Shown here in pieces: positions 4,939 to 19,974 of a stretch of 64,000 nt of DNA. The stretch's first letter is position 1, and each line of letters starts with the position of its first letter. The stretch lies in the sequence record OZ035773.1. One strand, given 5' to 3'. The notes under the pieces are model-generated. The model made no database searches. It was given only the letters and a program-made list of their open reading frames with translations, and was not told the DNA's origin. A program made the position numbers and the translations under genes. This DNA comes from Justusliebigvirus VEcB.

Positions 4939-5328
4939 ATGCGCAACCTGGTTTCTGTTTCTAACGTTGAAAAATTTCAATCCTTACAGGGTATCGTTAA
5001 CAACGTAGCGCCTTTTTTAGTAAACGGCTTGATCGCAAAGATGAAAAATAAACATCATGCGGCATGGTCTGCTTACTGCTTTGATAATGATGAAAAAGCG
5101 GCTGAAATGATGTTAGATATGCTGTTAGATAGTGTAGAAACATCTTTACCGGAAAACATCGCAGAAGAGATCACCTATCGTTATAATATGGCGATCACTT
5201 ACCAGGAGGTTGCGCAATTCAACATGATGGATGATGACGAACAACAGGATCAGGAAATGTTCTGGGAGTATGCGGATCGTCAATCAGCTTTTGATGAAAA
5301 ATTAGCGATGTATTATAACGAATATTAA
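4939..5328 (+). CDS. hypothetical protein (129 aa)
   Basis: track ORF 4903..5328 trimmed to ATG after hairpin. Confidence 0.5.
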   Translation: MRNLVSVSNVEKFQSLQGIVNNVAPFLVNGLIAKMKNKHHAAWSAYCFDNDEKAAEMMLDMLLDSVETSLPENIAEEITYRYNMAITYQEVAQFNMMDDDEQQDQEMFWEYADRQSAFDEKLAMYYNEY

Positions 5329-5345
5329 TACACGGTAAAAGAAAG

Positions 5346-5368
5346 GGGCGCACTAAGCGCCCTTTTTT
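5346..5368 (+). terminator. rho-independent terminator
   Basis: gggcgc-actaa-gcgccc followed by TTTTTT. Confidence 0.6.
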
Positions 5369-5515
5369 GTATTCTTTTTCACAATGGAAGCGACACGTAA
5401 AGAATAGGCGTAAAGGTGGCGTAAAACCATCTAAAACCGACTGTAACCGCTTAAACAAGGTAGGAATGATTAATCACCTTACCAGGATGAAAAAGCTGTT
5501 ATAAAGCTATCTAGG

Positions 5516-5812
5516 GTGTTTAAAGGTGACTTGGTTGAAGTTAGAACAACCGAAGGTTATAGCGACGATTATAAATGCGAGATTCATTTACACAACTGGT
5601 ACACGGGTAAAACTTATGCGCTGAATCATGCGTTTATCGGCAAGGTTGAATATAGAGAAATGATCGACGAAGAAACCGGGCAAGATTTTAGCGATCATGT
5701 TTATATTCGTTCAGAAACATTAGCCGAACGTTTGATCGAGAAAATGAAAGCAAAAAATAAAATTAATTTAGCTCATTGGATTGATATAACAAACGATCCA
5801 GCTTATAAGTAA
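5516..5812 (+). CDS. hypothetical protein (98 aa, GTG start per track)
   Basis: six-frame ORF; weak RBS. Confidence 0.4.
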   Translation: MFKGDLVEVRTTEGYSDDYKCEIHLHNWYTGKTYALNHAFIGKVEYREMIDEETGQDFSDHVYIRSETLAERLIEKMKAKNKINLAHWIDITNDPAYK

Positions 5813-5827
5813 ATAACATTTCATACC

Positions 5828-5852
5828 AGGGCGCTTATTGCGCCCTTTCTTT
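5828..5852 (+). terminator. rho-independent terminator
   Basis: agggcgc-ttattg-gcgccct followed by T-rich run. Confidence 0.55.
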
Positions 5853-6059
5853 TTACCTAAATAAAGATGATAGCTTTTACCTATCAAAAACGTTCACCGA
5901 AAAAAGTGAATAGATCGCGGTATCGAGCTAATCAAGGAGCAGATGAACAACCATACCATGAAGATCATAAGGCGTTTACAGCGTGTTTTAGACCGTTTAT
6001 TTTTAATTTCTTCATGCAACTATAGGACAAAAACAGTCTTTTTCTTGTCTTTCCTCTTA

Positions 6060-6076
6060 AATGATAATCATTCTTA
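6060..6076. repeat. palindromic repeat aatgataatcattctta (Fur-box-like)
   Basis: exact second copy at 6118-6134; related copies at 7042 and 7224. Confidence 0.6.
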
Positions 6077-6117
6077 TTTATAGCTGATTATTTATGCAAT
6101 AAACTGCATAATGCAAT

Positions 6118-6134
6118 AATGATAATCATTCTTA
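6118..6134. repeat. palindromic repeat aatgataatcattctta (Fur-box-like)
   Basis: exact copy of 6060-6076. Confidence 0.6.
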
Positions 6135-6524
6135 ACTTAAGACCATCTAACTTATAAAATAATAAGTTATCTAACTAAATTAAAGCTAATTATCTTACTT
6201 TTATTTATAACATACTGTTACTATCTTATTGATAACCTTATATTAAACAACAATAATCAATGTAAATCATTACTAAGCTAACTATAATCTATCTAACCAT
6301 TAAAACTATAACTATAATCTATCGAATTGTTGCACAAAGTAACTATTAAATTGTTAGTAACATTACTAAATAATTCACATCTTATCTATTTATGATCTAA
6401 TCTTTACCTCCCTATTTATTACCTAAATAACCATTTCATGTAGTAATCATTTCATACAATAACTATAACAAGAAATATAATTCGCAAGCGTATCATTAGC
6501 AGCCTATGCCGGACACATAGGCGG

Positions 6525-6670
6525 CTAATAATAACGCAACTACACCCCCCCACATAATAACTATCGCCGATAGTTATTATTTGTGTTTATGTAGCTTGCA
6601 ACAATTGCAAGCGCAACAATATACATGGTATATTGTATTCCCTTACATTGTTGCGGTGCGTTATTATTAG
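6525..6670. repeat. inverted-repeat-bounded palindrome cluster
   Basis: ctaataataacgcaac (6525-6540) matches reverse complement within gttgcggtgcgttattattag (6650-6670); internal palindromes at 6551-6581, 6596-6610, 6617-6635. Confidence 0.5.
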
Positions 6671-6733
6671 CTAATGTTTAGAACATTGGCTATAATATAA
6701 GCTGCATATAATAAGCTATACAATAATAAACAT

Positions 6734-6769
6734 AATGAATAATGACACTGAAATGAATAATGACACTGA
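6734..6769. repeat. perfect 18 bp tandem duplication aatgaataatgacactga x2
   Basis: read directly from sequence. Confidence 0.8.
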
Positions 6770-6909
6770 TGATCATAATGCGCCACCCTCCAGGGGCGCT
6801 ATGTGAACACAAAGAAATCTTTCTTGTCAAGAAAAATATCATCATTATTGCGCAAAATTATTTACATCTGAATAGATGATTTTTCATACTATTGCCCCCA
6901 TATAACTTA

Positions 6910-6968
6910 CTATTTGTTGCAATGTATTCCCCTATTTGTTGAGCATAGTTATAGCCTATTTGTTGAGC
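6910..6968. repeat. three direct copies of ctatttgttg(agc)
   Basis: copies at 6910, 6932, 6956. Confidence 0.65.
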
Positions 6969-7041
6969 CTACTTTCTTAAAAGCGCAATAAATCAGAATT
7001 ATCTTGATTTTTAGGTAGTTTTATAGTATAGAAAATATGCA

Positions 7042-7057
7042 AATGATAATCATTATC
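7042..7057. repeat. palindrome aatgataatcattatc (17/19 match to Fur-box consensus)
   Basis: compared by eye with GATAATGATAATCATTATC. Confidence 0.5.
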
Positions 7058-7261
7058 AGCTATCTTCCACGGGTGGCACTATTTCACACCAGATCATTTC
7101 ATTTGGCAAGGTGTAGATAGATGTTTAGACTTGCCAAGTTATTGATTTACTTAGAATTTATCTGTTTTGTTGTAAGTAGAGCCTTTTTTGCTCAGAAAAT
7201 AATCAAAAGTCTTATAAGTCATTGAATGATAATGCAAATGATAATTATTCTCATTGATATT

Positions 7262-7486
7262 TGAGGGGGACGGTCGGGAAAAATCGGGGGGCGCTGAAAA
7301 TCGCGTTAAGCACCTCTCGCAAGCGAGCAGTATTTTGCGGCAAGTTATTGATATTATTGACTTTACGCTTATGAAAAGGGGGTGTGTCGAAATAAATCGG
7401 GTATACCGGAAAATTTTTGTGGCATAGATATTTATTTGTCTATATTATGTACAAAGGGGTGTGTTAAAAATATTAGGTATATATAG
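7262..7486. repeat. three imperfect ~30 bp iteron-like direct repeats
   Basis: gggg-tgtgtcg-aaataaatcgggtata-like units at 7262-7296, 7375-7405, 7454-7484. Confidence 0.5.
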
Positions 7487-7627
7487 AATAATTGATAGGG
7501 AAATCCTATACTAATTCCTCCATTAATGATGTTTCTATGTTGCTGTTCTTGTAATAGATGAAAAGACGCTGTATGATGTGTGGCATGAAACGTAATCCTA
7601 CAACGTAATCTTATAAAGGAGTCTGAT

Positions 7628-7993
7628 ATGTGTGTTCCTCTTAGCAGTCCACTGCTGTTAGAATTTTACAAAGCATGGATGGAAGATCATTCCTCAATGC
7701 ATCGTGAGAATGTTGGTTTGTGTAATTGCCTTATGGATTACCTGGCAACCACTATGTCAAAGAAAAAACCTACGGAAGAAGATATAGAACATTTCAAGAT
7801 GGTTCGTAGCAAAACGCTGGAAGAGATGAAACTGCAATTCACGTGTGCTGGGCTATCCTCCTTCCTACCCTTTAATTATGATCTTCTGTGTTATGAAGAT
7901 GAAGGTAAGACACATTCTTGCCATACCAACCCAAAGAGATTGCAGTGGGTGAAAGACAGAATCGAAGATGCAAATAATGCTTGCATTGAATAA
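7628..7993 (+). CDS. hypothetical protein, paralog family A (copy 1)
   Basis: shares L-FY-W...GLC-CL-D-L...PFN...QWV-DRI motif with 9690 and 10968 ORFs. Confidence 0.55.
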   Translation: MCVPLSSPLLLEFYKAWMEDHSSMHRENVGLCNCLMDYLATTMSKKKPTEEDIEHFKMVRSKTLEEMKLQFTCAGLSSFLPFNYDLLCYEDEGKTHSCHTNPKRLQWVKDRIEDANNACIE

Positions 7994-8075
7994 AAATGTC
8001 TGTATAGTGGTTTGCATACCGCGCACGACGCGTTTCCATTTTCAATAAAATGTTAGCATTATGGGGAGGTAGAAA

Positions 8076-8537
8076 ATGAGACAACTATCTATACTGGAAG
8101 CACATGTGCAATGTGTTGCAGATTATGTCAAAGAACACTCAAGTTTGTTGGATGTAACCTGTGCAGTGCAAAATGATGTAGGTATTGTCTGTGTGCGACA
8201 TATCTTATCTGAAACTCGTTATGAAGTATTTCGTGCCAAGTTGTTTGGATGTGATCAAGTGCATGTAAACTTCTTGGATTCCAATTTTCGTTATGCTTTA
8301 AAAAATATTGAGGATTATCTTCCTTGCTCTCCGACCGGATATGTGATGATGGCAGCAAATGAAGTAACACCAAACAATAGTGAGCGGGAAACTTTGTTAC
8401 GGAAGAAAATACGCCAACTGCAAGTGTTGAATGAACTGAAAGAAGAGATTGAAAAAGAACTGAAAGAAGATTTTGGTATGCTTCCAAAAGACGCTTTGAA
8501 ATGGTTTGATGAACTAGGAGAGGAAAGTTATGAATAA
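8076..8537 (+). CDS. hypothetical protein, paralog family B (copy 1)
   Basis: H-SLL-V...V-H-LS-T-Y-VF motif shared with 14573 ORF. Confidence 0.55.
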   Translation: MRQLSILEAHVQCVADYVKEHSSLLDVTCAVQNDVGIVCVRHILSETRYEVFRAKLFGCDQVHVNFLDSNFRYALKNIEDYLPCSPTGYVMMAANEVTPNNSERETLLRKKIRQLQVLNELKEEIEKELKEDFGMLPKDALKWFDELGEESYE

Positions 8538-8706
8538 AGAAACTACTGTGTACTTAGTAACAAAGAATACCCCAGGCTGGAGCCAATGCAGCACTATACC
8601 TTACAAGATCTGTGCAACATTAGAACTAGCACAACGTGCAGAAGCAGAAGTGGATGCCATGCAATACAGCTATGGTGAAATCATTCCTTTTACTCTTGAA
8701 CAATAA
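8530..8706 (+). CDS. small hypothetical protein (58 aa)
   Basis: ATG overlapping upstream stop; not in track. Confidence 0.35.
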   Translation: MNKETTVYLVTKNTPGWSQCSTIPYKICATLELAQRAEAEVDAMQYSYGEIIPFTLEQ

Positions 8707-8717
8707 GGAGTTGTGTA

Positions 8718-9170
8718 ATGTTTGAAATTGGTAAAGTGTATCGTTTTAAGAACGAATCTTATATCCGTAAGTTTGCTAATGTGTCTGAGTTCAATAACAG
8801 GATTGCTTCTTTCTTAGGTGATTCCTATTTTCGTGTATTAGATATTGATGACTGGTATGGTGTCACTTCTTTGCAATCCTTAGCAGGAGAGCAAGAAATT
8901 ATCACTCAAAATGAAGGAGATTTTCTTCAGTGTTACACATTGCTTGTAGAGAGTGAGTTTGAATACTTTGTAGAAGTAGTAGAGGAAGCACCAAAAAGTA
9001 AGCATGAAGAGAAATACCTGCTTGTAGTGGATGGAGTTCCAATCGTGGAAACCATCTCCCGTGAGGAAGTTGAAAAAGAGGCAAAACGTTACAAGCTGGA
9101 TCGTACACAGAGTGTAGTTGAAGTCTATTCTCTTATTGGTGTTGCAGATGTTCATGTGAACATTGTATAA
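8718..9170 (+). CDS. hypothetical protein (150 aa)
   Basis: six-frame ORF with AAGGAG upstream. Confidence 0.5.
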   Translation: MFEIGKVYRFKNESYIRKFANVSEFNNRIASFLGDSYFRVLDIDDWYGVTSLQSLAGEQEIITQNEGDFLQCYTLLVESEFEYFVEVVEEAPKSKHEEKYLLVVDGVPIVETISREEVEKEAKRYKLDRTQSVVEVYSLIGVADVHVNIV

Positions 9171-9384
9171 TATGTGTAATGATAGATACATTCTTCGTGT
9201 ATCTGATAAGTCTCCTATGTTTGACTGGCGGGGCTGGTGGCTACTAGCTCCGATGCTAGGTCTGACTGACGTGGAAAAGGAGGCTTATGTGTATACAAAA
9301 GAAGAGATAGAAGATAGCCTTTATTTGACAGATAACATTAAGAATGGTATCTTTGAGTGTAAATTGAAAGGAGAGGAAGAATGA
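9163..9384 (+). CDS. hypothetical protein (73 aa)
   Basis: six-frame ORF; overlaps neighbours by a few nt. Confidence 0.45.
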   Translation: MYNMCNDRYILRVSDKSPMFDWRGWWLLAPMLGLTDVEKEAYVYTKEEIEDSLYLTDNIKNGIFECKLKGEEE

Positions 9385-9680
9385 CTGTTACAGAAAAACT
9401 GCGTTGTATTGCAAAGCAAAGCGGAGAAGGCTTATGGTTTCCTATTGATGAAGTTATTCAGGACTGTTATGATCAGGCTAAGACTGGCAAATACTCCAAA
9501 GCATTTAAACCATCTGTTTTCGGTTTGGATGATTATCCGACGAATGAACAAGCAAGGAAACGCCAAGTTGATTTGATTGATCTTGCTATGGAAGCACTAC
9601 GAGAGCGTGGACTTAGTAAGGTGTATGCTTTAAACACCAAAGAGGGTTTTGTAGATTCAGTGATCGTAGACTGGCATTAA
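9381..9680 (+). CDS. hypothetical protein (99 aa)
   Basis: six-frame ORF; start overlaps upstream stop. Confidence 0.5.
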   Translation: MTVTEKLRCIAKQSGEGLWFPIDEVIQDCYDQAKTGKYSKAFKPSVFGLDDYPTNEQARKRQVDLIDLAMEALRERGLSKVYALNTKEGFVDSVIVDWH

Positions 9681-9689
9681 GGAGCAGCC

Positions 9690-10058
9690 ATGCAAGAGAA
9701 TAATAAAGTGTGTAACATGAAAAGCAGCCCCTATTTGCTACAATTTTATGAGTGGTGGTTGGAACAAGAAGATACAAACTTTAGCAAAAAGCATTATGGT
9801 CTTTGCACGTGTCTTGTAGACTTCTTATACAACATTGCTTGGATAAAAGATGTTGAAAATGTATCAAAACTCCAATCCTCTGTACGAGAGGAAATGAAGG
9901 AACAATTTAAGAAAGCGGGTTTGAACCATTTACACCCATTTAATACAGATTTCTCACATTACTTTACGGAAACAGAGCTAGGCACTGCACACCTTAACAA
10001 AGAACGTGTACAATGGGTGATTGATCGTATTCGTGATATGGAGGAATATAATGGTTAA
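9690..10058 (+). CDS. hypothetical protein, paralog family A (copy 2)
   Basis: family A motif. Confidence 0.55.
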   Translation: MQENNKVCNMKSSPYLLQFYEWWLEQEDTNFSKKHYGLCTCLVDFLYNIAWIKDVENVSKLQSSVREEMKEQFKKAGLNHLHPFNTDFSHYFTETELGTAHLNKERVQWVIDRIRDMEEYNG

Positions 10059-10260
10059 GTTTAAAACCTTCTGTGCAATCACTGTTTGTCTTATTCTTGC
10101 ATACGTGTTATTCTCTGGTATCATTCGTTTAGGTGAGTATATGGCAAGAGAAGCTCGTGAAAGTGAAGCTAAAAAAGAACAGTGCATCGTGTTAAAGCAC
10201 CAAAGGGATGCTGAAAAATTTCTTGAACAGGATTGTGGGCGCTATGTGAATTATAATTAG
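10051..10260 (+). CDS. small membrane protein, paralog family C (copy 1)
   Basis: track ORF 10021..10260 trimmed to ATG after GGAGGA; TM helix plus KE-C-IVLKH motif shared with 15048 ORF. Confidence 0.5.
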   Translation: MVKFKTFCAITVCLILAYVLFSGIIRLGEYMAREARESEAKKEQCIVLKHQRDAEKFLEQDCGRYVNYN

Positions 10261-10269
10261 GAGGGAAGT

Positions 10270-10518
10270 ATGTTAGATATTTTTACCTTTGATCGTGTTG
10301 GTACACCGATTACCGAAGAAGAACGTACCAAAATTGAACAAGAATTGGATGCTTTACGTGCGTCTCTTACAGACACAGCCTCACTACAACGTGAAGCTGC
10401 ACATCTCACAGAGATCACTGGTATTCAGTGGAACACGGAGTGGGTTGTAATTACAATTGAAGCGGATATTTGGGGACATGAAGAGACGCTACGTACCGGA
10501 GTAGTAACGGTTTGGTGA
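10270..10518 (+). CDS. hypothetical protein (82 aa)
   Basis: six-frame ORF, GGAGGGA upstream. Confidence 0.5.
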   Translation: MLDIFTFDRVGTPITEEERTKIEQELDALRASLTDTASLQREAAHLTEITGIQWNTEWVVITIEADIWGHEETLRTGVVTVW

Positions 10519-10564
10519 TAGATGTTATTCTTTTGTGTTTCTTGATATATAAATAGGAGGGTTT

Positions 10565-10789
10565 ATGGTAAAACGTCTGGAATGGGATGCGTGTACTGCT
10601 CACGCTTGTCACTGTGATATTGTTGAAGATCCTAATGGAGAGATGGTGTATTATGAGGATTACGAAGCATTGCACAATGCTGTGATTGCTTTACTGGATG
10701 ATATTAGCTCACGCTATCCAGGACAACAATTCACGTGTCCACATATCCAACTATTAGCCGAACTTACGGAGTATCCAAGTGTTCCATAA
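10565..10789 (+). CDS. hypothetical protein, paralog family D (copy 1)
   Basis: CDIV-DP-G...DY motif shared with 15924 ORF. Confidence 0.5.
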   Translation: MVKRLEWDACTAHACHCDIVEDPNGEMVYYEDYEALHNAVIALLDDISSRYPGQQFTCPHIQLLAELTEYPSVP

Positions 10790-10967
10790 TATGGGTGTCC
10801 CTGAACAACTGCTCTTTATTGTAGGATTAGTAGGCTTATTGGCGGCTGGCGCTAAAGCCGCTTCTCACACGCATCACATAATGTTAAGATTTCTGTTCCT
10901 ACTCCCTTCTATCCTTGTATTATTAGTCATATTGATTGATAACATTTTTCACAATTAAGGAGAGGTT

Positions 10968-11552
10968 ATGAGTAAAATTATACCAAGCAGTTATGAATTA
11001 TTGCAGTTTTATGTATATTACTTAGACTGGGTTAATAGATCGAATGTTAAAGACAATGCGATGTTTAGTAAAAACATCTGTTTAACAGAAAGTATCTTCC
11101 GTTATTGGCACACAGGCAGAAAGTGTACACACAGTGAAGCTATGCGCATTGTAGGTGAATACCTGGAGCAATTGCAAAAAGCAGAACTTCCTGTCCTTCA
11201 CCCATTCAACGAATCTAAAGAAGAATTAGAACAAGAGTGTAGAGAAGGTAAGTGCCATTTAAATGAAAAACGTATCGAATGGGTGAGGCAACGTTTAGCC
11301 GATGCAGGGAATCCTCCTAGTGACTCTGACTATACGTGGTATGATGTAGAGGGTTTAGTTCAAGGTTTTGAGGCTTGTGCTATAGGTAATACCAACTTTG
11401 CCAAAGTTTTATGCGAGGTTTATGATCTGGCAGATAAAATCCGAAATCACGGATGGAAACAAGAGCATAAAGAATCATATGAACGCCTTGACAAGATTTT
11501 CAAACAGATCTATTCTAACCACAAAGAGATGTTCCAAATGGAGGATGTGTAA
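10968..11552 (+). CDS. hypothetical protein, paralog family A (copy 3, C-terminally extended)
   Basis: family A motif in N-terminal 120 aa. Confidence 0.55.
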   Translation: MSKIIPSSYELLQFYVYYLDWVNRSNVKDNAMFSKNICLTESIFRYWHTGRKCTHSEAMRIVGEYLEQLQKAELPVLHPFNESKEELEQECREGKCHLNEKRIEWVRQRLADAGNPPSDSDYTWYDVEGLVQGFEACAIGNTNFAKVLCEVYDLADKIRNHGWKQEHKESYERLDKIFKQIYSNHKEMFQMEDV

Positions 11553-12238
11553 TGAAAGAGATTATGTTTGAAGGGCATCGTTACGAAGTTCCAGACAATG
11601 CAAATTTCATGGCTCGTGATATCACTGGAGATGTGTTCTGGTTTGAAGATGAACCTGTGTTTTCTTCGAACAAACACTGGTTTTCACAACAATCTTCTTC
11701 GGAAAATATGACTTTTGGCTACGTAGAGCCTAAAGTGCGCTGCAAAGCAGCTTCTTCTTTGGTAGAAATTTCCCAAGATGATCAAGAAAATACTCCAGAT
11801 GTTGTTAGTGCACTACTGAAGTACATTGCAGAACTTGAGAAGAAAATTAAAGAAGCAGAAACTAAGGTGAAAGCACGATCAGCCATCATTGAAGCTATGT
11901 CTGAACGTATCTTAGAGCTAGAAGATTTGTGTGGAGAGGCTTATCAAGTGGTTGGTGCGCTGGCTTGTGAAGCACAAATGTTTGAAACTTCAGAACAAGT
12001 TTCACATATGTTAGATAATTTGAGTGAATGTAAAATGATTCATGATGATGTATTGCCATTTTGTTGCAATGTTAACAAAACAGAGCAAACACAAGATTCA
12101 GAAACAGTTTATGTTCCGCTAATGTGTGTTCCAGATCATCTAAAAGGTGTATTCTCTTGTAAATGGTCGCTGTTGAGCGTTACTAATTGTGGTGAAAACT
12201 ATTCTGCCAACATTGAATTGCTAAAACACGTTAAATAA
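11552..12238 (+). CDS. hypothetical protein (228 aa)
   Basis: six-frame ORF; start overlaps upstream stop. Confidence 0.5.
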   Translation: MKEIMFEGHRYEVPDNANFMARDITGDVFWFEDEPVFSSNKHWFSQQSSSENMTFGYVEPKVRCKAASSLVEISQDDQENTPDVVSALLKYIAELEKKIKEAETKVKARSAIIEAMSERILELEDLCGEAYQVVGALACEAQMFETSEQVSHMLDNLSECKMIHDDVLPFCCNVNKTEQTQDSETVYVPLMCVPDHLKGVFSCKWSLLSVTNCGENYSANIELLKHVK

Positions 12239-12248
12239 GGAGAGTAAT

Positions 12249-12653
12249 ATGTGGTCTGTTAAAATCAAATATAATGCGCAGTATTATGGTGGAAAGCCTT
12301 ACGAAGTTGTTATTTGTGACTGTATCTCTAAAGAAGTTGCACAGCTTTGTGGCGCTGGTGTTAGTGAAGCTATGAACAAAATGCATAACTCGACTGTGCG
12401 TTACCTGGATCAAGATATTCCAGAAGATGTAAATGACTATGCTTACGAAGTTATTTACAGTGAAGGTAAGAAGCTCTCTATTGAAGATGCACTTAAAGCA
12501 CTACCTGCTATGTGCAGCCCAACGCCAGAAGCAGTTAAAGAGGTTTTACCAGAATCCAACCCCGATGAATATGCTTCTATGGTTGCTTCAGATATGTGGA
12601 ATCTCTGTCGAGAAACTATGATTAAAAATCTTGTGGAAATGGCGCATGAGTAA
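12249..12653 (+). CDS. hypothetical protein (134 aa)
   Basis: six-frame ORF with AAGGAG upstream. Confidence 0.5.
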   Translation: MWSVKIKYNAQYYGGKPYEVVICDCISKEVAQLCGAGVSEAMNKMHNSTVRYLDQDIPEDVNDYAYEVIYSEGKKLSIEDALKALPAMCSPTPEAVKEVLPESNPDEYASMVASDMWNLCRETMIKNLVEMAHE

Positions 12654-12864
12654 AACACACTTTATACATCCGTTTGATCCAAAGAACAAGGCGGTTATAC
12701 ACCGCCGTTGGACTGAAACGCGCATTACAAAATGTCCTGTGCCAGCAGCACAGGAATATAACAAAACATATAAAGCAGAATTTGTGGAGTACACCTTTGT
12801 AAATAACAAAGGGAAGGAGGTTTATGTTCCAGAATACTGCCTTTGGATAAAATGGGAGGAATAA
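12646..12864 (+). CDS. hypothetical protein (72 aa)
   Basis: track ORF 12631..12864 trimmed to ATG overlapping upstream stop. Confidence 0.4.
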   Translation: MSKTHFIHPFDPKNKAVIHRRWTETRITKCPVPAAQEYNKTYKAEFVEYTFVNNKGKEVYVPEYCLWIKWEE

Positions 12865-13031
12865 TGCAAACATTTTTTATCGACAAGTTCAATAAAAGTA
12901 TGAACACGTGGATGGCAACATTCACTATGCAATTTGCGTCATTTAAAGAAGCTCAAGAATGGTGCGATCAACACAAGGATTTTGATTTTTACTATCAAGT
13001 TAATGCAAACCTTTCTCCAGAGGAGAAATAA
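12864..13031 (+). CDS. hypothetical protein (55 aa)
   Basis: track ORF 12843..13031 trimmed to ATG after GGGAGG. Confidence 0.4.
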   Translation: MQTFFIDKFNKSMNTWMATFTMQFASFKEAQEWCDQHKDFDFYYQVNANLSPEEK

Positions 13032-13032
13032 T

Positions 13033-13377
13033 ATGTTGGCTGATATTGAAATCCTTATGTACCGACAAGGTATGATCAAAATGTGGTTAGATTCTTTTAG
13101 CAACATATACTGCACAGTACGATCAGCAGACGAGCGTAAAACGCTTATTTTATCTGCTATTGTTGATAAACAACGTTTCTTCAAAGAAATTTTGCAAACA
13201 GGCTTCTCCGATGCAGGAGTAGAAATTGCAACTCTTAGTTTTGGGGTGCTGTCTTACTTGGAATCTGTTGTTTTATATGTCTTCTCTTTAGAGGAAGACT
13301 TGCAATTCGAAGCATTAAAACTTATCTTAGATGCTGCAATTGACATAGAACAAAATCGAATTGATTCTTTTGAATAA
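13033..13377 (+). CDS. hypothetical protein (114 aa)
   Basis: track ORF 12934..13377 trimmed to ATG after AGAGGAG. Confidence 0.45.
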   Translation: MLADIEILMYRQGMIKMWLDSFSNIYCTVRSADERKTLILSAIVDKQRFFKEILQTGFSDAGVEIATLSFGVLSYLESVVLYVFSLEEDLQFEALKLILDAAIDIEQNRIDSFE

Positions 13378-13392
13378 AATAAGGAGAAAACT

Positions 13393-13851
13393 ATGAAAGA
13401 GGTTAAACATTATCCACATGGTCGTAGTTTTGTAGCTGTATGGCATGTTCCTGCTCGTAATGAACTATTTTGTGCATCTTTTCATTACAAAGATGGACAA
13501 TATTTCACCTATGACGAGACGATGGATGATTTTATCCCAGAGTGCGATCATGGGTATACACCAATGTTCTTTAAACGTATGAAAGCTCGTTTCTTCGTTA
13601 CAGATGTTGATGGTGAACCTACTTGGCACATCGAAGAAGATTGGCAAGATTCTGTAGATATTAAAGAAGCCCCAGAATGGGCTACACTACTGGTACACGT
13701 CAAAACCCCTACTCTTGACGTTATGGCGTGGGTTAATCATGATGATACCCATTACCAATACATAAATGGTAGCACAGAGATTTCTGGTGAGATTATTGGT
13801 CGTTGGAAGCCTACGAATCAGGTTGCTATTGTCGGGTATAAGACAGTATAA
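13393..13851 (+). CDS. hypothetical protein (152 aa)
   Basis: six-frame ORF with AAGGAG upstream. Confidence 0.5.
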   Translation: MKEVKHYPHGRSFVAVWHVPARNELFCASFHYKDGQYFTYDETMDDFIPECDHGYTPMFFKRMKARFFVTDVDGEPTWHIEEDWQDSVDIKEAPEWATLLVHVKTPTLDVMAWVNHDDTHYQYINGSTEISGEIIGRWKPTNQVAIVGYKTV

Positions 13852-13852
13852 T

Positions 13853-14047
13853 ATGAAAAAGAGTGTAGATTGGGATGATTTATCCGATTTTGAAAAATGG
13901 TTTTTAGGTAGTGGTTGTTATGCAGATGGGGATCTCGAAAGAGATCCTTCTGGAAACTACACTATGCCATTAACCCAAGGTTTTTATGAGTGCTGGTGCG
14001 CAGCACAAAACAACGTACTGAATAAGGAGACAACACAATGCAATTAA
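13853..14047 (+). CDS. hypothetical protein (64 aa)
   Basis: track ORF 13766..14047 trimmed to ATG after upstream stop. Confidence 0.4.
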   Translation: MKKSVDWDDLSDFEKWFLGSGCYADGDLERDPSGNYTMPLTQGFYECWCAAQNNVLNKETTQCN

Positions 14048-14277
14048 ACATCGGACAACCAATTTTTGATGCAGATACTGGTCAATATGCAGTGATTGTT
14101 GCTCGTATGAGCGGTGATGACCTTATTGTTTCAGAACTACTCGGATCAGATCCGCAACTGCGCGTAGTATGTGACCTATATCTTCGAGACGAAAGTGATC
14201 GCATTGCACTGAAAGAAGATGGTATGCTCTACTATACCTGGACTAGAGATCCTGGGGTAACGGAGGTAGAGGTATAA
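14038..14277 (+). CDS. hypothetical protein (79 aa)
   Basis: six-frame ORF. Confidence 0.45.
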   Translation: MQLNIGQPIFDADTGQYAVIVARMSGDDLIVSELLGSDPQLRVVCDLYLRDESDRIALKEDGMLYYTWTRDPGVTEVEV

Positions 14278-14576
14278 TGGTAAGGAATAGGGGTTTACAT
14301 AAAAGAAGACACCTTACTTACTGGCATCGTAAAGTACATGAACCTGTATCAAAGAAAGAATGGCAATATCTGCCTTATGGGAAGGAGCGAAGAAAGTATC
14401 TGTTAGCTCATTTAAGGGTACATGGTTCTCTTCCTGTTAACAGTAAGTGGCAATTGCAAACAGCTTATGACGAAGATATGAAATATCTGTTAAAGAGAGG
14501 CATTATTTGCCTTGTTAAGATAGGGCGATGGAAATCTCGTCAATCTTATATCGTACTTAAACAGGAGAAACCATGA
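14277..14576 (+). CDS. hypothetical basic protein (99 aa), possibly nucleic-acid binding
   Basis: K/R/H-rich; no confident motif. Confidence 0.45.
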   Translation: MVRNRGLHKRRHLTYWHRKVHEPVSKKEWQYLPYGKERRKYLLAHLRVHGSLPVNSKWQLQTAYDEDMKYLLKRGIICLVKIGRWKSRQSYIVLKQEKP

Positions 14577-14824
14577 ATATCAAAGATGTTGTAGCATATG
14601 TAGAAGATGAAGTTAAAAACCATACAAGTTTACTGAAAGTAATGGTTGTGGTTAAAAATGGCATTGGACAAGTAAACGTACAACATGTCTTATCTGATAC
14701 TGTATATAATGTGTTTGAATGTAAAGACACACCTCATGGAGTACGTGTGGTGTATATTGATAACAATTTCAAAGAGTGTGTGAGACATACCTTAGAAAAT
14801 GAGCTAAGGATCACAATCTTATGA
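14573..14824 (+). CDS. hypothetical protein, paralog family B (copy 2)
   Basis: family B motif. Confidence 0.55.
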   Translation: MNIKDVVAYVEDEVKNHTSLLKVMVVVKNGIGQVNVQHVLSDTVYNVFECKDTPHGVRVVYIDNNFKECVRHTLENELRITIL

Positions 14825-14994
14825 GTTATTATGTTGTACCCTATGCCAATAAGTGGAGAGTAAGAGAAACTTGTTTTCTATTCTCCTGGTGGGCTACGTT
14901 CGGAGATGGTTGTGGAAATGATACAGGGAAGCCTGTAGAGTACGACACAAAAGAAGAATGTGAACAGTGGATAAAATTAACACAAAGATGTTGA
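14821..14994 (+). CDS. small Cys-rich hypothetical protein (57 aa)
   Basis: ATG overlapping upstream stop; not in track. Confidence 0.35.
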   Translation: MSYYVVPYANKWRVRETCFLFSWWATFGDGCGNDTGKPVEYDTKEECEQWIKLTQRC

Positions 14995-15047
14995 CACGAT
15001 CTTAACTTCTTGTTAGTATCAATGTGTACTAACGATAAGGAGGGTTT

Positions 15048-15272
15048 ATGAAGTCTGTAAACAAGTTGCAACAATTTTTGTTATCAACAGCAATCTTTTT
15101 GCTTTTGTTAATTGGTATTCTGTATGGTGCATCTAACTTATACAATCTACATAATGATGTAGAACAGAATAAAGAGAAGTGCATCATTCTAAAACACAAG
15201 AAACAAGCAGAAGATTTCTTAAAGAATAAGTGTTACAACTACATTGATTATGAGGAGACAAACAATGATTAA
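15048..15272 (+). CDS. small membrane protein, paralog family C (copy 2)
   Basis: TM helix plus KEKCIILKHKKQAEDFL motif. Confidence 0.5.
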   Translation: MKSVNKLQQFLLSTAIFLLLLIGILYGASNLYNLHNDVEQNKEKCIILKHKKQAEDFLKNKCYNYIDYEETNND

Positions 15273-15507
15273 AGAATTAGGTATGCGAGTATACAGTGAG
15301 TGGACTCCAAGCAATGGCCCAGGAGTTGTTGCAGCTAAATGTATCAATGGTCGTATTGAGTACCTGGAAGGGTATGAAGATAATGAAGAGTTAGTAGATT
15401 ATGCTAAATCTTTTATTGAAGATGATACAGACTTTATTGTATTATATGATACAGGAGAGTTAGAGTATGGATATGATGGAGATGGGGATATCTTTGAACT
15501 TCAATAA
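15265..15507 (+). CDS. hypothetical protein (80 aa)
   Basis: track ORF 15244..15507 trimmed to ATG after GAGGAG. Confidence 0.45.
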   Translation: MIKELGMRVYSEWTPSNGPGVVAAKCINGRIEYLEGYEDNEELVDYAKSFIEDDTDFIVLYDTGELEYGYDGDGDIFELQ

Positions 15508-15714
15508 GAGTAGTAAGTAAGGTATAAAGAGTATATAGTTAGTTATAGAGTTAGTAACATTACATATACTCTTTCTATGTATAACATGGAATATTCTCTA
15601 CCTCGCTATCGCTCGGTATATAAGATTAGGGTAGCATGTTTTTTACGAAAAGTAAAACTGTTTGTACCGATTGATAGCAGGTTTTTAATAGATTTTATCT
15701 ATGAGGAGTAGAAA

Positions 15715-15933
15715 GTGTACAAATTATATAAAGCAAAAGATAAGTTTACGGGTAATACATCTGGTTTCTATGTAACACCTCGGGGTGTTGCTGTGTTCGA
15801 TTGGATCTCCGGTACTCCAGATCGGGAAATGATCTCTCTTGTAAAACTGTCGGAACAAGAGTACACTTACGGTGACATTACAACATTCTATTCTCGTGCA
15901 GAAAATCCAAAACTGATTGCGGAGTGGGAATAA
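15715..15933 (+). CDS. hypothetical protein (72 aa)
   Basis: six-frame ORF, GTG start after GAGGAG. Confidence 0.45.
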   Translation: MYKLYKAKDKFTGNTSGFYVTPRGVAVFDWISGTPDREMISLVKLSEQEYTYGDITTFYSRAENPKLIAEWE

Positions 15934-16196
15934 TGGTTACACGATATGACTTAGAGGTGTACAGCCAAGGTGCTGCTGGTCAATGTGATATTGTACCAGA
16001 TCCAGAAGGGGATTATGTTCTTCTTGCTGATTACAATAAGCTAGAAGAAAGACTTCTGGCTGTGTATGCTAAAGAGAACAAAACAATCTGCCCTTATTGC
16101 AGTGGAATGGGTTGGGTAGTTGCAGATGTTGGACAAATGTATGAATGTGTGCCTTGTAAAACCACAGGATTTATTGAAAAGGATACTGACAAATGA
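15924..16196 (+). CDS. hypothetical protein, paralog family D (copy 2)
   Basis: CDIVPDPEG motif. Confidence 0.5.
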   Translation: MGIMVTRYDLEVYSQGAAGQCDIVPDPEGDYVLLADYNKLEERLLAVYAKENKTICPYCSGMGWVVADVGQMYECVPCKTTGFIEKDTDK

Positions 16197-16441
16197 CTGT
16201 AGCAGATAAAATGAGAGAACTGGCAGAAAACGCAGAACTTAACAAAGCAAAAGAGAGTTTACAAAACGTCTACGCGTATATTGAAAGAGCAGCTAAAGAT
16301 GGAGACAGAGAAGCTGCTATATACACGCTCTATCCAACTTTCGTAAAAGTTAGCTTGGATGCTGAAGGTTTTTCAACTTTTATTGATACAGAAACATCTC
16401 ATTACGATGAAAACTTTACTCGAATAGTTATTCGATGGTAA
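16193..16441 (+). CDS. hypothetical protein (82 aa)
   Basis: six-frame ORF. Confidence 0.45.
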   Translation: MTVADKMRELAENAELNKAKESLQNVYAYIERAAKDGDREAAIYTLYPTFVKVSLDAEGFSTFIDTETSHYDENFTRIVIRW

Positions 16442-16546
16442 ATTTCTGATATTTATGCGCCCTGGCTACCTGGGCGTAATAAATTCAGCTTATATTTGAT
16501 CCGCGCCTTCGGCGCTTAGGCAAAGCCACGCCACACAGGAGAGTTT

Positions 16547-16957
16547 ATGTTCAAATGGTTAAAAGAGTTTCTAACATCTTTGGCAGAACCTAAGCAAGAT
16601 GTTATTAAAAGCTCTATCACAGGAAAACCGCTTGTTATAGTTACAGGCGGCTTTGGTCATGGGTTTTCTCTTAAACAAACAGATATAGGTTTACAGGGAT
16701 CTTTGATTAGTTTTAGAATCACTCAATTAGGAGATAATAGACAAACAATCTTAGACCTTTTCAATGGGGAATTTGATGACTATTTATCCAAGAGTGGTAA
16801 AGAACGTCTGATCGAGCATATAAAACACCGCTATGAGCATGGTGGTTACTACTTAGATACAAAACGTAATGCACAAGGTGATCTTGACATAGTTCGTATA
16901 GCGTGGGATAATGAATTTAAAACTAAACTTGGTAAACTTCTGGAGGAGTTATGGTAA
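16547..16957 (+). CDS. hypothetical protein (136 aa)
   Basis: six-frame ORF with GGAGAG upstream. Confidence 0.5.
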   Translation: MFKWLKEFLTSLAEPKQDVIKSSITGKPLVIVTGGFGHGFSLKQTDIGLQGSLISFRITQLGDNRQTILDLFNGEFDDYLSKSGKERLIEHIKHRYEHGGYYLDTKRNAQGDLDIVRIAWDNEFKTKLGKLLEELW

Positions 16958-17133
16958 ATATTAAAACAGGTGATATTGTACGTCTTGCTAGTGAAGAAAT
17001 GTTAATGACTGTAATGGTATCTACCTACGATACTTGCGAAGTGGTGTGGTTTGATGTTAATGAACAACTACAGAAAGCTACATTTGATAAACGTATGCTT
17101 CGTAAAGTTGAAGAAGTGAAGGAGGAAGAATAA
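16951..17133 (+). CDS. hypothetical protein (60 aa)
   Basis: six-frame ORF. Confidence 0.4.
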   Translation: MVNIKTGDIVRLASEEMLMTVMVSTYDTCEVVWFDVNEQLQKATFDKRMLRKVEEVKEEE

Positions 17134-17134
17134 T

Positions 17135-17347
17135 ATGGGAATGTTGCTTCGTGTTTTTGTGTTTCTTATGTTCTGGATTATCGTTGGTAACGGTATTGTA
17201 TTTTTGATTTTTCCTGAAGTGATGACAGGTAATGAAAATAAGGCAGTGCCTTACATTATGCTTATCGGTTACGGTATTGGTACACTTGGACTACTGTTTG
17301 CTGATTGGTTGATCAATACTTTGTTCTCTAAGTACAGGAACAACTAA
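17135..17347 (+). CDS. small membrane protein (70 aa, two TM helices)
   Basis: hydrophobic composition. Confidence 0.45.
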   Translation: MGMLLRVFVFLMFWIIVGNGIVFLIFPEVMTGNENKAVPYIMLIGYGIGTLGLLFADWLINTLFSKYRNN

Positions 17348-17348
17348 T

Positions 17349-17621
17349 ATGTCGGAAAAATTACCTAACGTTTTCTTTTGTTTTGTAGATTGCGTTACAC
17401 AAGAAATTATAGTTGACGAAGAAGGTATGTTTACTTATTTTGCATCTGAAGAAGAGGCAAAACTATCAGCTATGAAGTGTATAAGCCAATTGTCAGTACC
17501 TGCTGTCAACAGGTTCGGTATTGCACAGGTGTATAAAACAGTAACAGAGTTTACACCAGATCGAAAACTAACTTTTCTTAACGTTCACTTTGTTTGTAAG
17601 TTTAGTGAACTACGACATTAA
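17349..17621 (+). CDS. hypothetical protein (90 aa)
   Basis: six-frame ORF. Confidence 0.45.
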   Translation: MSEKLPNVFFCFVDCVTQEIIVDEEGMFTYFASEEEAKLSAMKCISQLSVPAVNRFGIAQVYKTVTEFTPDRKLTFLNVHFVCKFSELRH

Positions 17622-17634
17622 ATCAGGAGTAAAA

Positions 17635-18234
17635 ATGAAAGAATATTGGAGTGGTGAGAAGGGCTTGCTAAAGTCAGGAATGCTTTTGCGAGTAAAGAAC
17701 ATGTTGATCACACAAGATTACATAATGCCTAATCCTGGAGCATTAGTAGAATTCCTTACTGCGCGAGATCAACCTGGGGTTGGTGAAATGTGGATTGTAA
17801 CGTGGATATCTCTCGATAGTAAATTACGCGTTGCTCCTATTGACCCAAAACACTTGGAATCTCCTTACGCCAGCATTGATTCTCGGATCATAGATTTGGC
17901 TAGAGTTTATAAGGCTAGGACTGGTGTAGAATTAGATGTAGAAATTTTAAATCAATGTATTGACTTCTTACCTGAAAAAGTGCATAATGCACAACAAGAA
18001 GATAGCGGTTTAGAAGTTATTCTTCTGAATGATGGGATGTTCTCTGGTCTGGCATCTGTAGATTTTCCAATAACATTAAGATTGTTACCTGGGGAATACG
18101 TACTGGATGACACTACTATTGCTATATCCTCTAAAATTTTAGAACTCATTCCAGGTGCAAGGTGTGTTGGTGATACATCTTCCTTGCTGTTTACTCTGAA
18201 TGAAGAAGCCATTATAGTTAAAAAGGAGAAGTAA
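17635..18234 (+). CDS. hypothetical protein (199 aa)
   Basis: track ORF 17590..18234 trimmed to ATG after AGGAG. Confidence 0.5.
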   Translation: MKEYWSGEKGLLKSGMLLRVKNMLITQDYIMPNPGALVEFLTARDQPGVGEMWIVTWISLDSKLRVAPIDPKHLESPYASIDSRIIDLARVYKARTGVELDVEILNQCIDFLPEKVHNAQQEDSGLEVILLNDGMFSGLASVDFPITLRLLPGEYVLDDTTIAISSKILELIPGARCVGDTSSLLFTLNEEAIIVKKEK

Positions 18235-18339
18235 ATGATGACGTTTATTGTTGGTGTTGTTGTTGGTTATTTTGGTCACAAGTATCAGGATGTTATCATC
18301 GCTAAAGTTGACGAAGTAATCGAAAAATTTAAACACTAA
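18235..18339 (+). CDS. small hydrophobic peptide (34 aa)
   Basis: AAAAGGAGAA RBS; not in track. Confidence 0.3.
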   Translation: MMTFIVGVVVGYFGHKYQDVIIAKVDEVIEKFKH

Positions 18340-18390
18340 TTTTCTAAAAGGCTGTACTATTGTGCAGCCTATCTTTCAAAGGAGAGTAAA

Positions 18391-18564
18391 ATGTTCAAAG
18401 ATACCAATTATAAATGTGTACATTGTGGTAAATCTTTTGGTGATCACAAAGCTAAAACATTCAATTGTCCACGAAAAGGGCGAGGTAGCTTTAAAGGTTT
18501 TAATCCATCTCACGTTTATTCTCCCAACTACGAGAAACCAGAAGAAGAAAAATTTGTAATCTGA
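18391..18564 (+). CDS. small zinc-ribbon-like protein (57 aa)
   Basis: CxxC...C-P cysteine pattern; GGAGAG RBS; not in track. Confidence 0.4.
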   Translation: MFKDTNYKCVHCGKSFGDHKAKTFNCPRKGRGSFKGFNPSHVYSPNYEKPEEEKFVI

Positions 18565-18573
18565 GGAGGCAAT

Positions 18574-18861
18574 ATGGAACTAGTGCAAGAAGTTTATGAA
18601 AAACTGAAAGAAGAGAATCTTGATTGGCCTGAACATGCTCTTATTGTCGTCAAAGATACTAATGGTGAAATAAAATTCTCAAGTGTAAGTGAAGATGATG
18701 TTGTTTTAAGTCCTACAGGATATTATATGAGAGGTGTTACGTGTCTATTCAACACCAAAGTGTATCCTGAAATTAAACTTAGTTACGGTGAACCTGATCA
18801 TCCAGAAATCGTTACACGTAATGAATATGAAAATTATTATTTTGCTCGTGAAAGCAAATAA
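18574..18861 (+). CDS. hypothetical protein (95 aa)
   Basis: six-frame ORF after GAGGAGG. Confidence 0.5.
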   Translation: MELVQEVYEKLKEENLDWPEHALIVVKDTNGEIKFSSVSEDDVVLSPTGYYMRGVTCLFNTKVYPEIKLSYGEPDHPEIVTRNEYENYYFARESK

Positions 18862-18869
18862 GGAAAACT

Positions 18870-19193
18870 ATGCAAAAAATAAACACTGGTTCTCGTCCTA
18901 AACAGAAGCAAACAAAAGCAAGGGTATCTTATGTTGACAACTCTTGTTATAATTTCAAAAATGTTAAAGAAGTTATCATTGATGAAAAAGAAGGTTTGAT
19001 TCACATTTCATCTGAACGTTTGAAAGGTAGTGTTACTCTTCGTGAGAATGTATCTATACCTATGAAAGTTGTGGCTACACTCTGTGTTGATAAACCAGAT
19101 GTTGTTAACTACTATGTGTTCCGTGATAGTTGTATTTCATTACATAATAAGATTTTTAAATCTTCGCACGTTAAAACAAAACACATTGTATAA
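18870..19193 (+). CDS. hypothetical protein (107 aa)
   Basis: six-frame ORF. Confidence 0.5.
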   Translation: MQKINTGSRPKQKQTKARVSYVDNSCYNFKNVKEVIIDEKEGLIHISSERLKGSVTLRENVSIPMKVVATLCVDKPDVVNYYVFRDSCISLHNKIFKSSHVKTKHIV

Positions 19194-19197
19194 CACA

Positions 19198-19220
19198 TAA
19201 ACCCGCTTCGGCGGGTTTTC
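19198..19220 (+). terminator. rho-independent terminator
   Basis: aaacccgc-ttcg-gcgggtttt. Confidence 0.6.
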
Positions 19221-19278
19221 TTGTATGTGTGTTCTTTATTTGTTATAAGTATTCTTAGCATAAACAATAGGAGGTATT

Positions 19279-19500
19279 ATGTCTGTAGTTGTAGAAGGTA
19301 GTATTGGTTTCTTAGTAGATAACCCTCACCCTTTCGTGGTTAAGGTTCATATTCAAGAAAAGGTAAGCAACAATACGTGGTTGTGCTTGTTAGATAGTAA
19401 GATACACTCTTATACAGAGGTTTATCTTCATACTTGGCAAATTGGTACGATAACAGCAGAGGATGAATTGATAATTGAATTATATGAACGAGATCTATAG
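19279..19500 (+). CDS. hypothetical protein (73 aa)
   Basis: six-frame ORF after AGGAGG. Confidence 0.5.
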   Translation: MSVVVEGSIGFLVDNPHPFVVKVHIQEKVSNNTWLCLLDSKIHSYTEVYLHTWQIGTITAEDELIIELYERDL

Positions 19501-19575
19501 ATGACTTTACTAGAGAGTATCGTAGTGTTAATCATCCTTATCATTGTTGTCATAGGATATTTTACAGAAGACTAA
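19501..19575 (+). CDS. small hydrophobic peptide (24 aa)
   Basis: ATG abutting upstream stop; very short, speculative. Confidence 0.2.
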   Translation: MTLLESIVVLIILIIVVIGYFTED

Positions 19576-19581
19576 AAATAA

Positions 19582-19611
19582 AGCCCCTAGAATCGCTTCT
19601 AGGGGCTTTTG
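19582..19611. terminator. bidirectional rho-independent terminator at strand switch
   Basis: agcccctag-loop-ctaggggct flanked by A and T runs. Confidence 0.6.
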
Positions 19612-19676
19612 TTTGCATTAGATAGGGAAACGTATTACTAAAATAAAAAATGCGTTAGAATGCGTTACAGGAGGTT

Positions 19677-19934: not shown

Positions 19935-19950
19935 AATATTCTCCTATAAG

Positions 19951-19974
19951 AAAAGGGGCTTTCGCCCCCTTGGT
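19951..19974 (-). terminator. rho-independent terminator ending the Sir2 operon
   Basis: ggggc-tttc-gcccc hairpin with flanking A/T runs. Confidence 0.55.

Follow-up and report, generated by a model that had tools for sequence, protein, structure and literature searches.

Four families of diverged small proteins in the left-end accessory gene array of a phi92-like myovirus

Location of the array and relationship of its genes

The stretch analysed here (the window) comprises 64,000 nucleotides of Justusliebigvirus VEcB (sequence record OZ035773.1), and all coordinates refer to it. It carries an array of small genes, nine of which encode members of four families of paralogous small proteins, designated A (A1, A2 and A3), B (B1 and B2), C (C1 and C2) and D (D1 and D2). 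A megablast search with positions 7000–17000 matched 128 phage records, and the best match was Escherichia phage Antha (97.5% identity, 100% coverage), with phi92 at 97.3% identity. The window therefore belongs to Justusliebigvirus, i.e. to a phi92-like myovirus of the Stephanstirmvirinae (for phage identity and the left-end position see PMC12695924). Position 7000 aligns with position 35 of the phi92 record, and the 343-bp left-end direct terminal repeat (DTR) annotated at 1–343 of Salmonella phage UAB_1 aligns to the window from 6966 onward. By homology, the DTR, and with it the physical left genome end, is thus placed at 6966–7308 (343 bp), so that gene numbering from the physical end begins with the open reading frame (ORF) at 7628 (gene 1).

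According to the ORF list and annotated homologues in phages EmilieFrey, UAB_1 and PHB05, the array consists of 38 small, tightly packed ORFs on the plus strand, begins about 320 bp past the DTR and extends over 7628–19500. It had originally been predicted as a 9 kb array at 7628–16196; the array is present as predicted, but it is larger. The nine ORF starts then named for the families are genuine plus-strand ORF starts, and the four families account for 9 of the first 28 array genes. The encoded proteins range from 44 to 228 aa, most of the ORFs are preceded by AGGAG-type ribosome-binding sites, and most junctions measure −10 to +15 nt. The isoelectric point (pI) is below 6 for 27 of the 38 proteins, and with pI values of 4.3–6.0 the proteins of families A, B and D are among the acidic ones. 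A single array gene passes the Pfam threshold (12646–12864; DUF7202, E 4e-35). Small acidic left-end ORFs almost devoid of Pfam matches fit early or host-interaction genes. The array is closed by two strong bidirectional terminator-like hairpins found by a hairpin scan (19199–19218 and 19580–19609), and the GC skew reverses at about 20000, near the array end. Among the 40 small ORFs scanned in and beside the array, the only other Pfam matches were at 5516–5812 in the right-end block (Phage_30_8, the T4 gp30.8 family; E 2.7e-21) and, below the threshold, at 16951–17133 (DUF2158).

The relationship of the family members was assessed by all-against-all BLASTP of the 377 window ORFs and by Smith-Waterman alignment with 2000 shuffles per pair. 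The A1/A2 pair shares 40% identity over 115 aa (BLASTP E 1e-24, shuffle z 34.7), A2/A3 31% over 114 aa (E 1e-9, z 16.1) and A1/A3 29% over 119 aa (E 8e-7, z 13.0). The corresponding values are 43% over 74 aa for B1/B2 (E 1e-10, z 18.1), 50% over 30 aa for C1/C2 (E 7e-8, z 17.5) and 36% over 44 aa for D1/D2 (E 2e-4, z 9.4). None of the 2000 shuffles reached the observed score for any of the six pairs, and the maximum z between members of different families was 4.7. Furthermore, PHROG profiles cross-hit reciprocally within each family, and iterated hidden Markov models (HMMs) built from seven related arrays connected the paralogues with E values of 1e-21 to 1e-39. Formal alignment thus found the shared motifs to be significant in every pair, not insignificant, and the four families of paralogous small proteins put forward by the original prediction stand.

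No further multi-copy family was found when iterated HMMs followed by hhalign were applied all-against-all to the 38 array genes; hence, the prediction had captured all detectable paralogy. The sole additional hhalign signal connects the N-terminal ~35 residues (MTV.EK.R..A...) of the products of 9381–9680 and 16193–16441 (probability 46%, E 2e-4). Both have EmilieFrey homologues annotated as 'putative transcription factor', and they are a possible fifth family. Elsewhere in the window, the only other significant pair of paralogues is formed by sugar enzymes of the short-chain dehydrogenase/reductase type encoded at 32181–33011 and 34453–35442 (E 3e-7).

Family A is defined by a domain of ~110 aa that corresponds to PHROG 2510/27059/6418. 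A1 (7628–7993, plus strand; 121 aa) occupies the gp001 position and matches phrog_2510 (E 5.5e-23) and the A5 HMM (E 2e-34), and A2 (9690–10058, plus strand; 122 aa) matches phrog_2510 (E 4.4e-26). A3 (10968–11552, plus strand; 194 aa) combines a divergent A domain with a C-terminal extension of ~85 aa; it is a full-length member of phrog_27059 (E 1.5e-138) and also matches phrog_2510 (E 5.1e-18). The motif set SS..L..FY / GLC / EM..QF..AGL / PFN / HLN..R..WV is present in A1 and A2, and in A3 with the exception of the GLC register. The invariant or near-invariant positions include the polar residues S13, Y20, C39, E68, Q72, N103 and R106, as well as G37, L38, P83, F84, W109 and V110. Conservation of the polar residues hints at a binding or catalytic site.

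Structure modelling was applied to family A. The AlphaFold2 model of A2, built from a 90-sequence alignment, has six helices, with a mean predicted local distance difference test score (pLDDT) of 90.9 and a predicted template modelling score of 0.82; it supersedes an earlier run with three sequences (pLDDT 71). Neither structure nor sequence-profile searches of the PDB found a relative of the predicted fold, and the structural matches in BFVD, all named 'uncharacterized protein', come from diverse phages. As judged from the model, family A is a confidently predicted fold without a solved relative.

The family is widespread. Run against 1.84 billion proteins, a profile of the three window copies retrieved 783 clusters at E ≤ 1e-3 (one representative per cluster at 50% identity), and tblastn located the family at 543 places in 184 phage records. 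Most of the clusters are stand-alone proteins of 100–120 aa, and some contain two or three domains in tandem. Other A domains are embedded in proteins of 250–400 aa, several of which, in the tblastn search, overlap with genes that are annotated as EaA in temperate Salmonella phages. Inspection by eye, together with this overlap, identified the fusion partners as EaA-type prophage modules; Pfam searches with ten of the longer A-domain proteins gave no fusion-partner domains. Outside the Stephanstirmvirinae, family A is present in single or few copies, which have small genes as neighbours and lie at the left end or close to it. In the N4-like Erwinia phage Ea9-2 it is gene 07, upstream of RNAP1, and in Rhizobium phage RHph_TM33 (Autographiviridae) it is gene 003. 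Among the BFVD matches is gp5 of Burkholderia phage JG068, which lies in the class I left end of that phage (PMC3765740). In the T4-like Yersinia phage JC221, the family is found in a small-gene cluster adjoining the DNA ligase gene.

Family B consists of B1 (8076–8537, plus strand; 153 aa), in which an N-terminal B domain of ~75 aa is followed by an acidic helical C-terminal tail, and B2 (14573–14824, plus strand; 83 aa), which is the B domain only. B1 gives cross-hits with phrog_14944 and phrog_27423, and B2 was connected to it by BLASTP and PHROG cross-hits.

Both members of family C, C1 (10051–10260, plus strand; 69 aa) and C2 (15048–15272, plus strand; 74 aa), have a hydrophobic N-terminal segment, which in C2 resembles a signal anchor or signal peptide, followed by a C-terminal domain of ~35 aa with two conserved cysteines (KE.C..LKH...AE.FL...C..Y). 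C1 gives cross-hits with phrog_15662 and phrog_23204, and C2 was recognised by BLASTP and PHROG cross-hits. The mean Kyte-Doolittle hydropathy is 2.57 for residues 7–25 of C1 and 2.41 for residues 10–28 of C2, and lysines precede both segments. A hydrophobic N-terminal segment of ~19 residues behind a positively charged N-terminus is what is expected in an exported or membrane-anchored protein, and this topology is predicted for family C. A SignalP call is given in the database annotation of the C2 homologue, phi92 gp022. A sigma-70-like site (TTGACA-17-TAGTAT) lies at 14991–15019, just upstream of C2.

In family D, D1 (10565–10789, plus strand; 74 aa) and D2 (15933–16196, plus strand; 87 aa) share an N-terminal module of ~45 aa with the motif C.IV.DP.G.YV...DY..L. 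D1 gives cross-hits with phrog_23083 and phrog_22955, and its C-terminus is common to 148-aa Phapecoctavirus proteins. The C-terminus of D2 carries a zinc-ribbon-like CxxCxGxG/CxxC motif and matches phrog_13972 (E 8e-9); in Phapecoctavirus this motif is encoded by a small gene of its own, which in phAPEC8 is wrongly annotated as 'DNA ligase'. Family D is therefore a domain-sharing family, in which one N-terminal module joined to different C-termini reflects domain shuffling. The longest ORF of D2 begins with GTG at 15924, which lacks a Shine-Dalgarno sequence. The most likely start is ATG at 15933, because an annotated homologue, a GGAG 8 nt upstream and a TAATG stop/start overlap all point to it. 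Far outside the array, a 48-aa ORF on the minus strand (35966–36112) resembles the zinc-ribbon part of D2 (BLASTP E 5e-4). A Lar-like restriction alleviation function for family D was considered and rejected: only D1 matches phrog_3592, and weakly (E 7.7e-4; profile positions 4–50 of 182), the Pfam Lar family (Lar_restr_allev) gave no match even at E ≤ 1, and no named Lar relative was retrieved among 5.8 billion proteins.

Age, selection and exchange of the copies

The paralogues share 21–53% identity (identity matrix), and DNA similarity between copies is limited to direct stretches of 38–39 nt with 74–76% identity in the B and D cores. No recent tandem duplicates of the 'accordion' type were found, the top protein identity between paralogues being 53% and the DNA repeats not exceeding 39 nt. 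With identity of at most 53%, there are no young duplicates, and the copies are, judging by their sequences, ancient. For two of the A copies, the most similar Phapecoctavirus proteins (52% and 42% identity) are encoded where the array of that genus begins, which suggests, without proving it, that these two copies are older than the split between Justusliebigvirus and Phapecoctavirus.

Orthologues within the genus are 92–100% identical. The ratio of nonsynonymous to synonymous substitution rates (dN/dS), calculated by the Nei-Gojobori method and pooled for the window against EmilieFrey, UAB_1 and PHB05, is 0.12–0.15 for the array and 0.08–0.09 for the rest of the window, which holds replication and metabolism genes. 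By family, the pooled values are 0.10 for A, 0.24 for B, 0.28 for C and 0.05 for D. The paralogues are under purifying selection, and the array is only slightly relaxed as compared with the rest of the window. Diversifying selection, to which the divergence of the copies had been attributed originally, is not seen in these values.

The locus is variable within the genus. The indel map revealed that the A1 region (7529–7938) is deleted in PHB05, the B1 region (8019–8529) is replaced in EmilieFrey and UAB_1, and an 82-aa gene beside C1 (10236–10554) is missing in UAB_1 and PHB05. Comparison of synteny with relatives thus bears out the description of the region as an accessory locus of flexible gene content. 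B2 is present in every Justusliebigvirus phage examined, and B1 is missing from EmilieFrey and UAB_1. The number of A copies, determined by HMM searches of the fetched arrays, is two in PHB05, three in the window and in UAB_1, four in EmilieFrey, at least five in ZCKP1, seven in phAPEC8 and nine in phiWec186.

Part of this variation can be traced to another genus. EmilieFrey has an extra A copy that shares 97% identity with one in the Phapecoctavirus phage phiWec186 and only 50% with its own neighbour, and the interpretation of this copy as a recent tandem duplicate was rejected. The B1 region of the window (8014–8541) shares 93% DNA identity with phAPEC8, whereas the rest of the array has DNA identity of at most ~77% or no detectable match to Phapecoctavirus, with protein identity typically 25–60%. 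A junction of 76 bp composed of the A1 3' end and a spacer (7943–8018, plus strand) is 92–93% conserved in three Phapecoctavirus genomes (local blastn) and is a candidate recombination boundary. Together, these features give the B1 cassette (7943–8541) the look of a recent exchange between genera, with a short conserved sequence as its boundary. From the indels, the EmilieFrey A copy and the B1 DNA, the present copy-number variation reflects deletion and inter-genus cassette exchange. Of the repeated local duplication originally proposed, the existence of true paralogous or domain-sharing families holds; a recent duplicate is lacking, and the copy-number differences that could be traced are due to exchange with Phapecoctavirus.

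Taken further, the same observations would allow the two- and three-copy states to be mainly horizontal in origin (xenology), genes of sister lineages having been joined by recombination at short conserved boundaries. The near-identity of the B1 DNA to that of phAPEC8 against a background of diverged neighbours, the restriction of B1 to a subset of Justusliebigvirus, the origin of the EmilieFrey copy and the conserved junction at the exchange point all speak for this explanation, which is possible but which we do not consider the likely one. The four Justusliebigvirus genomes compared (the window, EmilieFrey, UAB_1 and PHB05) all carry A2, A3, C1, C2, D1 and D2, none of which has a close Phapecoctavirus donor. 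Tandem A triplets and pairs of phiWec186 (41–53% identity) resemble products of duplication in situ; one such triplet, with 41–45% identity, opens the phiWec186 array. The older copies plausibly arose by tandem duplication. In addition, the order B-C-D is repeated in both halves of the array, with a chance probability of ~6/90 (about 0.07), and could represent an old segmental duplication; hhalign detected no relationship among the genes between the repeated members. The phiWec186 array itself (fetched locus 5216–21050, minus strand), which contains the nine A copies, also has paralogue pairs where the window has one gene each (homologues of 8718, 9381 and 15715), and paralogy is thus a general property of such arrays.

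An ongoing process of repeated local duplication, with arms-race selection driving the divergence of copies that serve in anti-defence or host takeover, appears unlikely. It would agree with the genuine nature of the families, the three tandem A copies at the start of the phiWec186 array, the variability of the locus within the genus, and the dN/dS of B and C, which is the highest in the array and includes single comparisons with nonsynonymous differences in excess. However, the pooled ratios by family and for the array are low, no pair of paralogues exceeds 53% identity, and the only 'extra' copies traced came from another genus. Nor was a match to any known anti-defence protein found, and phi92-like phages are reported to be sensitive to restriction-modification systems.

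Leader region and remainder of the window

Four Fur-box-like motifs (AATGATAATNATTNTC) are located at 6060–6075, 6118–6133, 7042–7057 and 7237–7252. They are confined to the 1.8 kb of noncoding leader and terminal repeat, the remainder of the 64 kb having no such motif; the five strand matches at these sites compare with 0.09 expected for the window. The best site, GCAAATGATAATCATTATC, agrees with the E. coli Fur consensus at 17 of 19 positions. EmilieFrey has the motifs at all four positions. In UAB_1 and PHB05, for which the fetched loci start at the genome end and cover the two DTR sites, both DTR copies are present, and three Phapecoctavirus genomes have one copy 275–360 bp upstream of the first array gene. 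These sites could serve iron-dependent control of the first promoters or could bind an unrelated protein. The literature search found no paper on them.

A perfect 15-nt inverted repeat (arms 6524–6538 and 6657–6671) surrounds a 27-nt near-palindrome within 6540–6594 in noncoding DNA, ~300–440 bp before the inferred genome end, and direct repeats are present at 6738–6770 and 6923–6965. These repeats are candidate packaging or replication signals.

Gene content of 19677–58200 and 58938–62135 was assigned by homology to the EmilieFrey and PHB05 annotation. On the minus strand downstream of the array are genes for a sirtuin, methyltransferases (Dcm-like and N6-adenine), dTDP-rhamnose synthesis (a four-gene pathway), ribonucleotide reductase, thymidylate synthase, an exonuclease, a ligase and RNA repair (RNA ligase with polynucleotide kinase). 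An HslV-like peptidase and PhoH are encoded in this stretch as well. A phosphoribosyl pyrophosphate synthetase/NAMPT pair for NAD salvage and a cluster of 16 tRNA genes follow.

Possible roles and comparison with known systems

The region is probably the left-end accessory block of a virulent phi92-like myovirus, in which four old families are kept under purifying selection and are reshuffled by deletion and cassette exchange, and the products of which would be early and host-directed. The functional part of this reading is built on where the array lies, on how densely its ORFs are packed and on the repeated occurrence of family A in left-end regions. By analogy with other phages, host RNA polymerase would transcribe the array early from the AT-rich leader, and the products would act on the host as accessory proteins. 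The A paralogues may share one pocket formed by S13, Y20, G37-L38-C39, E68, Q72, P83-F84, N103, R106 and W109 and differ on their surfaces, which would make them a repertoire of related host-directed effectors. The C proteins may be exported or anchored in the membrane, with a periplasmic domain that contains a disulfide bond and a role at the envelope, e.g. in superinfection exclusion, and D2 is predicted to bind zinc.

Database searches gave few clues to function. None of the nine family proteins reached a Pfam or NCBIfam cutoff, PADLOC, a defence library, gave noise only, and PDB sequence-profile searches with A, B and D found no match. A word-indexed search of 5.8 billion proteins returned 1, 18 and 12 matches, none with a functional name, and no paper describing families A–D was found in the literature.

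Several observations weigh against the reading preferred here. The dN/dS values derive from three pairwise comparisons that are not independent, with few substitutions per gene, and nonsynonymous differences exceed synonymous ones in single comparisons of B1, B2 and C2. No match to a characterised host-takeover or anti-defence protein was found in Pfam, NCBIfam, PHROG annotation or the PDB. A scan for sigma-70 promoters found 58 as against 55 expected from shuffles, i.e. no enrichment, and no transcriptome for the Stephanstirmvirinae was found in the literature, so that early timing rests on position and analogy. Finally, exceptional sensitivity of phi92-like phages to restriction-modification systems was reported in the BASEL paper (PMC8594841), and this speaks against a role in anti-restriction that would be effective in the laboratory.

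The family members might instead be phage regulators that set the timing of the infection programme as transcription factors or small DNA-binding proteins, and not host-directed effectors. The EmilieFrey annotation names the D2 homologue 'putative DNA-binding protein' and several neighbours 'putative transcription factor', and the zinc-ribbon-like motif of D2 would suit such a role; but neither Pfam nor NCBIfam backs these labels here, the proteins of families A, B and D are acidic, and nine copies of one regulator family per phage would be unusual. We regard this explanation as improbable. Chance or compositional similarity among short, AT-rich, hydrophobic or cysteine-rich peptides is practically untenable and was rejected, since, despite the overlap of only ~45 residues between D1 and D2 and the hydrophobic segment of the C proteins, the C pair retains a z of 14.7 without that segment, every pair scored above all of its shuffles, with z values well over the maximum between families, and independent PHROG profiles and profiles built with relatives agree.

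The wide distribution of family A invites a bolder proposal, which is tentative and which we would not expect to hold as a whole: that the family is a new, widespread class of phage early effectors with a fold absent from the PDB, that the two to nine copies in phi92-like and phAPEC8-like phages differ in specificity, each of them neutralising its own host factor or defence allele, and that the module is reused in N4-, T7- and T4-like phages and in P22-like EaA proteins. If family A were a host-directed effector, this would annotate hundreds of 'hypothetical' genes at left ends and in small-gene clusters of N4-, T7-, T4- and P22-like phages.

These phage genes are already known in public databases as 'hypothetical proteins' clustered in PHROGs, and small genes with paralogues are familiar from the accessory regions of phages. 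What is new relative to the searchable papers is the explicit family structure, the range of two to nine copies of family A, the confident A fold without a solved relative, and the evidence for purifying selection and cassette exchange. Virulent coliphages of the phi92/phAPEC8 group are candidates for phage therapy owing to their very broad host range, and ~12 kb at the left genome end of the group are without functional annotation; the four families provide a short ranked list for functional screens. They also correct the evolutionary picture, from an arms-race hotspot to a stable repertoire reshuffled between genera.

At the level of single families, the domain of PHROG 2510/27059/6418 and the central module of the P22-like EaA proteins of the 'ea' region are the same domain as that of the window A proteins. 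It differs from the EaA-like proteins in that it stands alone here, in three copies, and in up to nine copies in relatives. No member of these PHROGs or of the EaA module has been characterised, and an early host-interaction role of family A is inferred. Small early membrane or periplasmic proteins are known from other phages, e.g. Imm, Sp and rI of T4. Family C resembles them in general terms by its length of ~70 aa, signal-anchor-like N-terminus, short soluble C-terminal domain and presumed early expression; unlike them, it is defined by two conserved cysteines, and no sequence similarity was detected with Pfam or PHROG. D2 is reminiscent of the DnaJ CxxCxGxG zinc finger and of anti-TRAP, with one canonical repeat (CPYCSGMG) followed by a partial one (CVPCKTTG), and its scores are below the cutoffs (DnaJ_CXXCXGXG, 14.9 bits against 32.7; Anti-TRAP, 15.6 against 32; NCBIfam RtpA, 17.7 against 65). 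D1 differs in lacking the CxxCxGxG motif.

As a whole, the array is comparable to the host-takeover blocks at the left ends or termini of large virulent phage genomes, such as the SPO1 host-takeover module, the T5 pre-early region and the hyperplastic regions of T4. In general terms, it shares with them a position beside a terminal repeat, orientation on one strand, dozens of small, mostly acidic, unmatched ORFs, gene content that varies among close relatives, and some paralogous genes. It differs from them in that no array member is homologous to a characterised takeover protein of SPO1, T5 or T4. A second, looser analogy is offered by the 'genomic accordions' of large eukaryotic DNA viruses, namely the K3L expansions of poxviruses and the multigene families (MGF) of African swine fever virus. 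As in those viruses, the copy number of a family in a terminal region, here A, varies among related viruses, from two to nine. Unlike in the accordions, near-identical tandem copies are absent, and the copies, 21–53% identical, are under purifying selection. Thus, the diverged copies of the phi92-like array represent a stable, diversified repertoire and not an active accordion.

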